From assembly GCA_965262915.1 (NCBI GenBank), contig OZ253564.1, positions 3,616,001 through 3,680,000 on the forward strand: a stretch of 64,000 bases of DNA, read 5' to 3'. Origin of the DNA: Candidatus Spongiisociaceae bacterium. GTDB lineage: Bacteria; Actinomycetota; Acidimicrobiia; Spongiisociales; Spongiisociaceae. The notes beneath the pieces are model-generated. The model was not told where the DNA came from and ran no database searches. It worked only from the letters and a program-made list of their open reading frames with translations. The position numbers and the translations under genes are program-made. Positions 22,411 to 24,121 of the stretch are shown here, one piece after another; position 1 is the stretch's first letter, and every line of letters starts with the position of its first letter.

Positions 22411-22543
22411 ACTCATACTTATAGGGTTTCCGGTTGGGGCCGGGTCTGACTCACGCGAAAACTGGCCTTTGGTGCCTTTCCCACGATCTGTCGACCTGGC
22501 CCCGGCTAGGAACCCTGAACCGGGGAGCGGGGTGACTTGATAG
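22411..22543 (+). ncRNA. Predicted bridge RNA of IS110-B (5' part, continues at 24031-24121)
   Basis: Target matches CGCGAAAAC (22454-22462) and CCCACG (22480-22485). Donor matches ATAG|GAGC (split by the insertion) and TGAGTG (24052-24057). Colinear with the IS110-C end. Confidence 0.65.
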
Positions 22544-22563
22544 ACACCCCAGGAGCGTAAATG

Positions 22564-23784
22564 TCAAGCTGCGGCTCGGTCGAGCATGGTTCGGTGTGCC
22601 CAGGCGGTGTGTTCGTCGTAGGGGGTTCGGTGTTTGAGGCAGCCGTGGAGGATGCCGACGAGCCGGTTGGCGAGGGCTCGTAGTGCTTGGTGGTGGAGGT
22701 CGCCGGCTGCTTTTCGTTGGTCGTAGAAGGCTCGCGCTCCTGGACTGTTGTTGAGGGAACAGAATGCCCATTGGTCCAAAGCGTTGGGGAGTCGCCGGTT
22801 GCGGACCTGGCGGGCAACGACGGCGTGTTTGCGGCCTGATGCGATGGTGATGGGCGACGTGCCGGCGTAGTTTCTGCGAGACTTGGCGCTGGTGTAGCGG
22901 TCGGGGTCATCCCCGAACTCACCGAGCGCCCGGGCGCCGAGCACGGTACCGAGTCCTGGCTGGGAGTGGTAGATGACGGCGTCCGGGTGTTCTTCAAAAT
23001 GGGCCTCGAGGGTTTCTTCGAGGTCGGCGATCTGGCGGTTGGTTTCCGCGATGATCTTGACCAGCGAAGCAACGATCGTCCCGAAGGCGTCCGCGACCGG
23101 CCCGGGTGCGGTGAGGTGGGCACCTCTGAGGCCTTTCTGTATGCGGCGGGCAACCTTGTCGAGGTTGCGTTTCCGTCCGCCTCTCTGTACCGCTGCTCTG
23201 ATCTGGGGAAGTGTCAGGCGGGCGCCCCGGGTGGGGGTGGGTGCCCGACCGAGTATGGCTAGGGCGTCGCGATGGGCCAGGTCATCGAACGTTTCCAGGG
23301 CTGCAGGGTAGTACTCGCGCAGCGCGTTGCGCATCTGGTTGGTGTGGCGGGTCCGCGCCCAGATCAGGTTCTGATGGGCACGGGCCATGATCTTGATGCC
23401 GTCCGCGTCTGGGCTGTCCCCGGCTACCGGACGGTGGTTGTGACGGTCGGTTCGTACCAGATCGGCTAACACCTTGGCGTCTCCTCGGTCTGATTTGGCT
23501 CCACCCTGGCGGTGACGGTCCCGGTAACGGGAAACTGCCATCGGGTTGATCGCATACACCTGATAACCCGCCCCGACCAGAGCACCGACCCACAGACCAC
23601 GGTCGGTCTCGATCCCTACCACCACCTCGGCCGCATCCGATGCGTGTTTGGCGACCATCTCGTGCAAGCGGGCCACACCCGCCAGGCCCTCCGGTAGACG
23701 GGAGAACCCCAGGCGGGCTCCCTCCTCGTCCAGCAGATACACATCGTGATGTCCCTCAGCCCAGTCGTTACCCACAAAGATCAT
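22564..23784 (-). CDS. IS110 family recombinase (IS110-A)
   Basis: DEDD RuvC-like residues GNDWA, GIET, KSDRGDA. Tnp20 region PGLG...SPITIASG, ALRALANRL. Confidence 0.95.
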   Translation of the reverse strand: MIFVGNDWAEGHHDVYLLDEEGARLGFSRLPEGLAGVARLHEMVAKHASDAAEVVVGIETDRGLWVGALVGAGYQVYAINPMAVSRYRDRHRQGGAKSDRGDAKVLADLVRTDRHNHRPVAGDSPDADGIKIMARAHQNLIWARTRHTNQMRNALREYYPAALETFDDLAHRDALAILGRAPTPTRGARLTLPQIRAAVQRGGRKRNLDKVARRIQKGLRGAHLTAPGPVADAFGTIVASLVKIIAETNRQIADLEETLEAHFEEHPDAVIYHSQPGLGTVLGARALGEFGDDPDRYTSAKSRRNYAGTSPITIASGRKHAVVARQVRNRRLPNALDQWAFCSLNNSPGARAFYDQRKAAGDLHHQALRALANRLVGILHGCLKHRTPYDEHTAWAHRTMLDRAAA

Positions 23785-24027
23785 CCTTCGCCCCTTCCTT
23801 GCGCGGGTCCACTCTCTGCTGAGCTGTGGAGAACGCCTGGCGGCGACCTAATGGATCAGTGCTCTGTGGCACGCCACCCCCTCAGCGCTACAAGCGGCCC
23901 TCACTCACCGGCCGGGGCACGATCTATCAGCAGGAATCAACGTTCCAGGAGCCTGGAGTACTCACCGGCCAGCCAGCTCAACCACCACACCCTCCCAGAA
24001 ACACCGGCAGAAGTGGTGGACCCCCAT
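23785..24027 (-). ncRNA. Predicted bridge RNA of IS110-A
   Basis: About 240-nt non-coding end. On the minus strand, in order: AGGCTCCT and TGATAG (target), then GGGGTG and CCATTAG (donor junction). Confidence 0.7.
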
Positions 24028-24121
24028 TAGGAGCCTTCGACTTTTGCACCGTGAGTGTTCTGTCCGCCGCTCTGCCCGGCTCCGGGGGTTGGATTCTAGG
24101 CAGCCGACGAAAGGCGAGCAC

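Follow-up and report, generated by a model that had tools for sequence, protein, structure and literature searches.

An IS110-type element predicted to target DNA encoding the donor guide of a second IS110 family in a Candidatus Spongiisociaceae genome

Background

What directs one insertion sequence (IS) of the IS110 type into the middle of another? The question is raised by a 64,000-nucleotide stretch of DNA from a Candidatus Spongiisociaceae bacterium (the window; assembly GCA_965262915.1, contig OZ253564.1, positions 3,616,001 to 3,680,000), part of a single-contig genome of 5.06 Mb. In it an element, IS110-A (A), splits the non-coding end of a second element, IS110-B (B), which itself lies in an ISL3-like element. 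A sequence-only reading of the window, made without database searches, had proposed that A is directed to the bridge RNA gene of B. The follow-up described here covered this genome (G000) and four others of the same genus, among them G001, G002 and G006; no claim depends on the unpublished genome G039. A is very probably a bridge-RNA-guided IS110-type element aimed at the DNA encoding the left donor guide of B.

The guides are named as for IS621. According to the available text of PMC11208160, the left target guide (LTG) of IS621 is the sense of the left target plus the core, the right target guide (RTG) corresponds in reverse complement to the core plus the right target, and a second loop follows the same scheme for the element's own ends. 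The guides of that second loop are here called the left (LDG) and right (RDG) donor guides.

Results and discussion

Three nested elements

The open reading frame (ORF) list and a reading of the sequence between 20500 and 27000 gave two divergent IS110-type genes, that of A at 23784..22564 (minus strand) and that of B at 24122..25354 (plus strand). Both recombinases match PF01548 and PF02371 above the curated cut-off: the 406-aa A protein matches DEDD_Tnp_IS110 at 4e-35 and Transposase_20 at 5e-9, and the 410-aa B protein, whose gene is intact in the window copy, matches them at 1.5e-23 and 4e-17. A and B represent different subfamilies, as their recombinases show only 25% identity, over 125 aa only. 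In the PDB the A recombinase matches the ISCro4 and IS621 transposases (3e-8 and 1e-7; structures 8wt6 and 9t56), the alignment taking in the SG motif of the C-terminal domain; a PDB search with the B recombinase gave nothing at E ≤ 1e-3.

On the plus strand A is flanked by TTGATAG (22537-22543) and GAGCCT (24031-24036). Read on its own strand, the element starts with CTAATGG (24030 downward) and ends with GGGGTGT (22544), and the junctions are AAGGCTC-[CT-AATGG...GGGGTGT]-CT-ATCA, in which the CT core alone is common with the empty site. The gene is preceded by 246 nt of non-coding DNA (23785..24030) and followed by 20 nt (22544..22563, minus strand), the latter forming the right end (...CGCTCCTGGGGTGT on the A strand). 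A has neither terminal inverted repeats nor any duplication beyond CT. By blastn, three copies in the genome are at least 99% identical, namely A1 (the window copy), A2 (4420449-4421935) and A3 (287302-288788); seven further copies (A') are about 85% identical and one (A'', 290125-291611) is 84% identical. The ends of A1, A2 and A3 are identical, as are those of the seven A' copies.

B is present in four copies (c1 to c4) at least about 98.6% identical, two of which, in the window and at 4.42 Mb (4419058-4422082), are cut by A at the identical base. The intact copies at 541929-543465 and 544723-546205 read GACTTGATAGGAGCCTTCGAC over the insertion site and so provide the empty site, bearing out the claim that A splits the non-coding end of B at TTGATAG|GAGCCT. 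The left end of the window copy thus lies in two parts on the plus strand, 22411..22543 and 24031..24121, which are joined directly in both intact copies. Once A is removed, about 224 nt of non-coding DNA lie upstream of the B gene; there are no terminal inverted repeats, and the right end, CATAGGAGCATC (25350..25361, plus strand), overlaps the stop codon of the transposase gene (tnp). Copies c1 to c4 differ largely in adjacent pairs or triplets of bases (alignment columns 351-352, 419-421 and 1044-1046), which is odd for independent point mutations.

B as a whole (22411-25361) is inserted 14 bp within the terminus of a repeated ISL3-like element. The left fragment of this host, ccctgcgcgaaaac (22397..22410, plus strand), is the left target of B and is common to copies c1 to c3. 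The remainder (25362..26649, plus strand) holds a fragmented ISL3 transposase, with Pfam matches to HTH_Tnp_ISL3 and DDE_Tnp_ISL3 (PF13542 and PF01610) on ORFs 25689-25970 and 25957-26649. Uninterrupted termini of the ISL3-like element, reading ccctgcgcg[a/g]aaaCGtgggttgggtgg or ccctgcgcg[a/g]aaaCGtgggttggg, occur at several other sites in the genome; the three-level nesting of A in B in an ISL3-like element, as first read from the window, is therefore real, and as an observation it is confirmed.

Guides of IS110-A and their natural covariation

The left non-coding end of A (23785..24030, minus strand) is predicted to encode a bridge RNA. It carries the LTG AGGCTCCT (23947-23954), the RTG TGATAG (23924-23929), the LDG GGGGTG (23875-23880) and the RDG CCATTAG (23848-23854), and their order and orientation agree with the IS621 rule. 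In the donor loop, TGGGGTG corresponds to the right end TGGGGTGT, the left donor half-site, and CCATTAG to the left end CTAATGG. The coordinates of A and the guide positions given in the sequence-only reading were correct, being read directly from the letters, and the target guides match the rebuilt target at all 12 positions.

That these guides determine the insertion site was examined in 28 full-length A-family copies from the five genomes; partial copies, and alignments that fell short of query positions 5-1470, were excluded. Of the 280 non-core positions at which LTG and RTG were compared with each copy's own flanks, 249 matched; shuffling of the flanks gave 160 ± 10, and none of 10000 shuffles reached 249. 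Five target classes can be told apart among the 28 copies. In this genome the A' copies, with LTG TGGCACCC, occupy arrays of (G[A/G]CACCT)n heptamers, and RTGs of TGCCAG, TGTCAG and TGCTAG lie beside right flanks of CTGGCA, CTGACA and CTAGCA, respectively. The covariation supports the prediction that the target guides of A specify its insertion site.

The heptamer arrays are themselves abundant: the genome has 54 arrays of at least three perfect G[A/G]CACCT units, the longest with 23 units (L032:1785-1945 and 53 others, none in the window). All seven A' copies are inserted in such arrays.

RNAalifold, applied to 27 copies, placed LTG and RTG opposite each other in an internal loop capped by a GGAA...TTCC hairpin, and the donor loop was partly resolved. 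No bridge-RNA family matched between 22000 and 26000 at E ≤ 1 in Rfam 15, where the one strong match was Ms_AS-4, an Actinobacteria small RNA (22882-22963, plus strand; 86.9 bits, E 3e-13). It lies antisense within the A recombinase gene, and the Ms_AS-4 family may simply represent a conserved stretch of IS110-type transposase genes.

The RDG is not uniform in the family. A variant, CUGCUAG, is carried by four copies of different lineages (A3, L027; an A' copy, L036; A'', L038; and L043 in G002), each of which begins with CTAATGG. In the same four copies GAG replaces CAU beside the left donor guide, and A1 has the GAG change only (window 23881-23886). This patchy spread suggests exchange among copies; a search of the genome for a donor of the variant RDG/LDG pair found nothing convincing.

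The target lies in the probable donor guide of IS110-B

A tblastn search gave 30 B-like loci in the genome, at 68 to 74% protein identity, and their left ends share one layout. The first half consists of the left end ACTCATA..., GGGTCTGAC, a variable 12 nt, a hairpin, TTT with a variable 5-6 nt, GATCTGTCG and a stem; the second half consists of GTGAC followed by [N3]ATAGGAGC[C/T]TT, a hairpin, CCACC-GTGAGTG and CTGTCC. In the window copy the first half contains the stem GGGTCTGAC (22442-22450), the LTG CGCGAAAAC (22454-22462), the RTG CCCACG (22480-22485) and ATAG (22540-22543). In seven B-like subfamilies the first pair of variable segments tracks the element's own flanks. In the subfamily of B itself, LTG CGCGAAAAC goes with the left flank gcgcgaaaac and RTG CCCACG with the right flank cgtggg; in subfamily 4996127, LTG CCTCGTAAC goes with cctcgtaac and RTG GUCAUG with catgac. 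The first loop is therefore the target loop of B.

The second loop repeats the frame of the first, with ATAGGAGC after GTGAC as the LTG stands after CTGAC. In B, ATAGGAGC matches the right end CATAGGAGCATC, the left donor half-site, at 8 of 8 positions. By a rough estimate, about 0.2 such 8-mer matches would be expected between a leader of about 240 nt and an end of about 30 nt, and the match is weak if taken alone; chance as its source was rejected on positional homology and covariation. Guide and right end alike have GTAGGAGC as their 8-mer in subfamilies 642297 and 2007849 (A-to-G, one compensatory position); an apparent exception, 4464296, proved to be a tandem composite locus. About 24 nt downstream of ATAGGAGC lies GTGAGTG, which pairs with the left end CACTCAT. 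In the window, the part of B beyond A carries GAGC (24031-24034), the remaining half of the left donor guide; next come a hairpin, GTGAGTG (24051-24057) as the right donor guide, CTGTCC and the leader. TAGGAGC is found in 29 of the 30 loci; in three of the 29 the sequence is restored by an A junction, which leaves 26 of 27 uninterrupted loci, and the exception lacks the left end.

The 12-bp site of A, TG-ATAGGAGC-CT, spans the entire left donor guide and is cut at ATAG|GAGC. The claim that A had inserted inside a donor-guide match of B is upheld by the 8/8 match to the right end, the positional homology, the GTAGGAGC covariation and the downstream GTGAGTG, and the site of A is supported as the left-donor-guide segment of the predicted bridge RNA of B.

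An alternative is that A does target the 12-mer, and that ATAGGAGC is not a donor guide but a conserved motif with another role in the B leader, such as a promoter, a protein-binding site or a Shine-Dalgarno-like sequence. AGGAG does look like a ribosome-binding motif, the match between guide and end stops after 8 nt with mismatches at two of the next three positions (which also counts against the donor-guide assignment), both motifs are unchanged in most B subfamilies, and the covariation concerns one position in two subfamilies. However, the B start codon is about 90 nt further downstream, and the motif stands behind GTGAC exactly as the covariation-backed LTG of the first loop stands behind CTGAC. 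After the motif come a hairpin, a segment complementary to the left end of B and CTGTCC, mirroring the first loop, and the LDG of A shows the same pattern of match then mismatch against its own right end. This alternative is very unlikely.

Target specificity in the genome

By base composition, 0.36 occurrences of the 12-mer AGGCTCCTATCA would be expected in the genome. Five were found, a result well outside chance, two intact (in the intact B copies) and three split (by A1, A2 and A3), and all five lie within donor guides of the B family. Twelve more B-like guides have AGGCTCCTATTA instead, with ATTA for ATCA, a single change opposite the RTG, and none of the twelve is occupied. The comparison of three of five ATCA sites with none of twelve ATTA sites counts A1 and A2 separately; the numbers are small, and independence of the events is uncertain. 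One of these near-targets lies unoccupied in the window at 48967..48978 (plus strand; genome 3664967), where it belongs to the donor guide of a further B-like element, with its tnp at 47666-48868 (minus strand); this is the near-identical site that had been pointed out in a third element, IS110-C.

Recurrence and retargeting in related genomes

All four copies with LTG AGGCTCCT and RTG TGATAG, three in G000 and one in G006, occupy one and the same position in left ends of the B family, and all are antisense to B. The G006 copy, 89% identical to A and with its guides unchanged, occupies the equivalent guide of a B-like element, some 95 nt upstream of the recombinase gene (frameshifted) of this host, with which it is head-to-head. 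In G002 a lineage with LTG AAGCTCCT occupies a B-like guide reading GAGCTTT, the change on the A side compensating for that in the host.

A further set of copies (A'' in G000, L030 in G002 and L021 in G001) has the guides ATGCTCCT and (A)ACATAG, which match GGATGCTC-CT-ATG. Their target is the right end of the B family, CATAG|GAGCATCC, and they are here called right-end (RE) type, the copies in B-like guides being guide-type. In the recombinase-gene tree the G002 guide-type lineage is sister to the RE-type copies (support 99/99), so that at least two changes of the guide-type label are required.

These results bear on the possibility that the locus is a frozen accident, in which A entered a B-family element a single time by chance and the composite then spread by passive copying, whether along with B, along with the ISL3-like host or through duplication, without any active aiming at B guides. 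The host B copies of A1 and A2 (c1 and c2) have 14 variant sites in common against the intact c3 and c4, so that A1 and A2 may represent one event copied as a B::A composite, and the host flanks of A3 and of the G006 copy are near-identical. On the other hand, the guides of A match the site in full, and sibling copies with other guides occupy other sites. A1 and A3 are sisters (98/92) differing at 13 of 1487 bases in host elements just about 70% identical in protein, from which it follows that A moved between host families recently. Passive copying would also have to account for the AAGCTCCT guide, which compensates for GAGCTTT in its host. Such an accident is highly improbable.

Several rearranged loci combine A copies with B-like elements. 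A B-like element of G000 (288871-290106) has been hit twice, by A3 in the guide and by A'' in the right end, and both A copies have the same orientation. At L021 in G001 a single A is bordered by a B-like left end that runs as far as the guide and, on the other side, by the final 8 bp of a B-like right end; the interior of the rival is deleted, the form expected from recombination between two such A copies. In G002, L043 and L044 are inverted, 4.6 kb apart, with one B-like flank each, which suggests a rearrangement between both copies. The A'' locus (L038; G000:C1:289825-291911) has the 11-bp GGATGCTCCTA at both junctions, its host right end reading CCATAGGAG[A'']GAGCATCC with GAG twice. This double GAG is unexplained by core-only exchange and reflects either a 3-bp duplication or a right-end variant with a copy of the left target.

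Such loci raise the question whether the targeting is an evolved antagonism, in which A lineages were selected to disable B through its guide or its end, paired hits delete the rival and B escapes by changes beside the 8-mer. The doubly hit element of G000 and its corresponding deletion product in G001 are consistent with this, as are the empty ATTA sites beside the occupied ATCA sites and the way in which the LTG tracks the host variants GAGCCT and GAGCTT. The same pattern would be expected, however, if A uses the most conserved multi-copy neutral sequence at hand, and its relatives use REP sequences and transposon ends; intact B copies are still present, and ordinary homologous recombination can yield the deletion product. 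Neutral targeting of a conserved repeat as a safe harbour fits the data equally well as selected exploitation or disabling of a rival. Antagonism is a doubtful reading.

Homologues beyond the genus set a limit to the claim. It had been suggested that insertion sites of A homologues be collected and checked for enrichment in IS110 non-coding ends. Recurrence was seen in two other genomes of the genus; for the wider set the outcome named beforehand as refuting, insertion mostly outside IS sequence, was the one observed, as 76 of 80 homologues at 60 to 86% protein identity lack any other IS110-family gene within 2.5 kb, and of the four with such a gene one is the RE-type copy of G002. Targeting of B thus characterises particular lineages in this genus, and since guides are programmable the result limits the claim without refuting it. 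The close relatives of A come from metagenome-assembled genomes of Acidimicrobiia or Candidatus Spongiisociaceae.

Together with this wider survey and the mismatches beyond the 8-nt match, several points weigh against targeting of the B donor guide by A. Independent insertions are few, given the shared variants of the A1 and A2 hosts and the near-identical host flanks of A3 and the G006 copy. In the predicted A fold, a double (compensatory) change is seen in just one of 53 consensus pairs; the copies are so close that the fold is to be taken as a prediction. The variant RDG CUGCUAG, in A3 and three other of the 27 aligned A-family copies, does not match the left end of its own element, and the core dinucleotide of B is ambiguous by 1 nt. 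Public sequencing runs were also searched: 20 of the 24 listed hold part of the stretch, and in the contigs of the four examined 18-24 nt extend across the B|A junction at 22543/22544, under the 31-nt rule for bridging; by that rule neither junction was bridged, and no circle junction was seen. The one joint in these data that skips 1487 nt (X2, side 27) is explained by the intact B copies, and the runs add neither independent support nor any sign of activity. Against all this stand the match of guides to flanks, the confinement of perfect sites to B-family donor guides and the recurrence in G002 and G006, and the mechanistic reading is, on the sequence comparisons made here, well supported.

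Proposed explanation

In the explanation favoured here, the target loop of A (LTG AGGCUCCU, RTG UGAUAG) would specify the 12-bp sequence AGGCTC-CT-ATCA, found in this genome only in DNA for the 5' strand of the predicted donor-binding loop of B. The targeted strand would be the left donor guide of B, AUAGGAGC, with two bases on either side. A would insert antisense in the B non-coding end, leaving the B target loop and half of the left donor guide on one side and the right donor guide with the recombinase gene on the other.

An interrupted B would be unable to make its own bridge RNA in cis. It would keep its DNA ends, and since bridge RNA works in trans (according to the available text of PMC11208160) it may be movable in trans by intact B copies. 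Restoration of B by precise excision of A, also proposed from the sequence, is doubtful, because IS621 is reported to excise mostly as a single strand, the donor site staying intact (10.64898/2026.08.31.748434, as far as its accessible text goes).

The site would suit A in being multi-copy, harmless to the host and held constant, the last presumably because the guide of B must keep matching its right end. As guide and end share the 8-mer, few guide changes may suffice to switch A lineages between the guide of B and its right end. The LTG of A is complementary over 8 nt to the donor guide of B, so that the two bridge RNAs may pair and interfere directly.

A more speculative extension, put forward tentatively, is that RNA-guided transposons act as hyperparasites of each other at the level of guides. 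A copy of the element's own end in its bridge-RNA gene would create two linked, mutually constrained 8-mers, either of which could be hit by the guides of a second IS110 family. Paired hits could lead to deletion of the rival's gene, victims could escape through changes in flanking bases, and the guide of the attacker could follow, as AGGCTC and AAGCTC might illustrate.

Relation to known systems

The nearest described system is IS621. The A and B recombinases share with it the DEDD and Tnp domains, and the elements its long non-coding end upstream of the gene; A resembles it further in having LTG and RTG as sense and reverse complement with the CT core in both, a second loop for its own ends and core-only exchange. 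A differs in that its recombinase is distant (E about 1e-8 to the solved proteins) and in being known here from sequence alone. The natural target of IS621 is a REP sequence, whereas that of A is donor-guide-coding DNA of another IS110 family.

IS110-family elements are established residents of conserved sites in other mobile elements. IS1383 is specific for the inverted repeats of IS1384, into which it integrates (Müller et al. 2001, as cited in the available text of PMC11208160), and like A it is an IS110-family element on a conserved functional end of another IS, as B is on an ISL3-like terminus; this use of the ISL3-like terminus by B is an ordinary case of mobile-element targeting. The target of A differs in encoding an RNA guide rather than being a terminal repeat recognised by protein, and sisters of A hit the DNA end to which that guide corresponds. 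IS4321 and IS5075 target Tn21-family repeats and other IS1111-type elements target attC sites (PMC11187229, in the text available). These too place members of the wider DEDD transposase group within conserved sites of other mobile elements, but they are IS1111-type, with the non-coding region downstream and sub-terminal repeats, and their victims are not RNA-guided.

Natural reprogramming of guides has been described for ISEc11 and ISXne4, close elements that differ mainly in the guide segments matching their targets (Siddiquee et al. 2024, PMC11187229, in the text available). In the same way, A-family copies with different guides occupy correspondingly different sites; the A family differs in having five target classes in one genus, two of them tied to the guide or end of another IS110 family. 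Literature searches, together with the accessible part of 10.64898/2026.08.14.744561, gave no IS110 element aimed at the bridge-RNA guide of another, and the target tables of PMC11208160 and PMC11187229 might hold cases.

Neighbouring features

A 113-aa ORF at 22108-22449 (plus strand) has a weak match to SLT_2 transglycosylase (E 7e-6), and its 3' end enters the stack of ISL3-like element, B and A; it is probably the remnant of a gene broken by the ISL3-like element. Termini of the ISL3-like element are repeated in the window at 52928, 54473 and 58353. Two of them are of the kind used by B as a target, and that at 52928 already bears the right end of a B-like element. B-like subfamilies are mostly located in ends of other repeated elements. 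A promoter scan gave no sigma-70-like sites in 22350-24200, a result that is uninformative for a GC-rich organism.

Conclusions

The locus illustrates how nested stacks of insertion sequences build up in IS-rich, symbiont-type genomes. Bridge RNA systems are in development as programmable genome editors, and the choices of target made in nature reveal how guides evolve. The A family offers a compact natural series of reprogramming, with five target classes within about 15% DNA divergence, and the genome itself gives a readout of specificity, in that perfect sites are occupied and sites with one mismatch are empty. The locus would also be a case of one bridge-RNA element aimed at the guide-coding DNA of a second. 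If the antagonism is true, it would represent a conflict between RNA-guided mobile elements that works through a built-in weakness, a donor guide that mirrors the element's own end.

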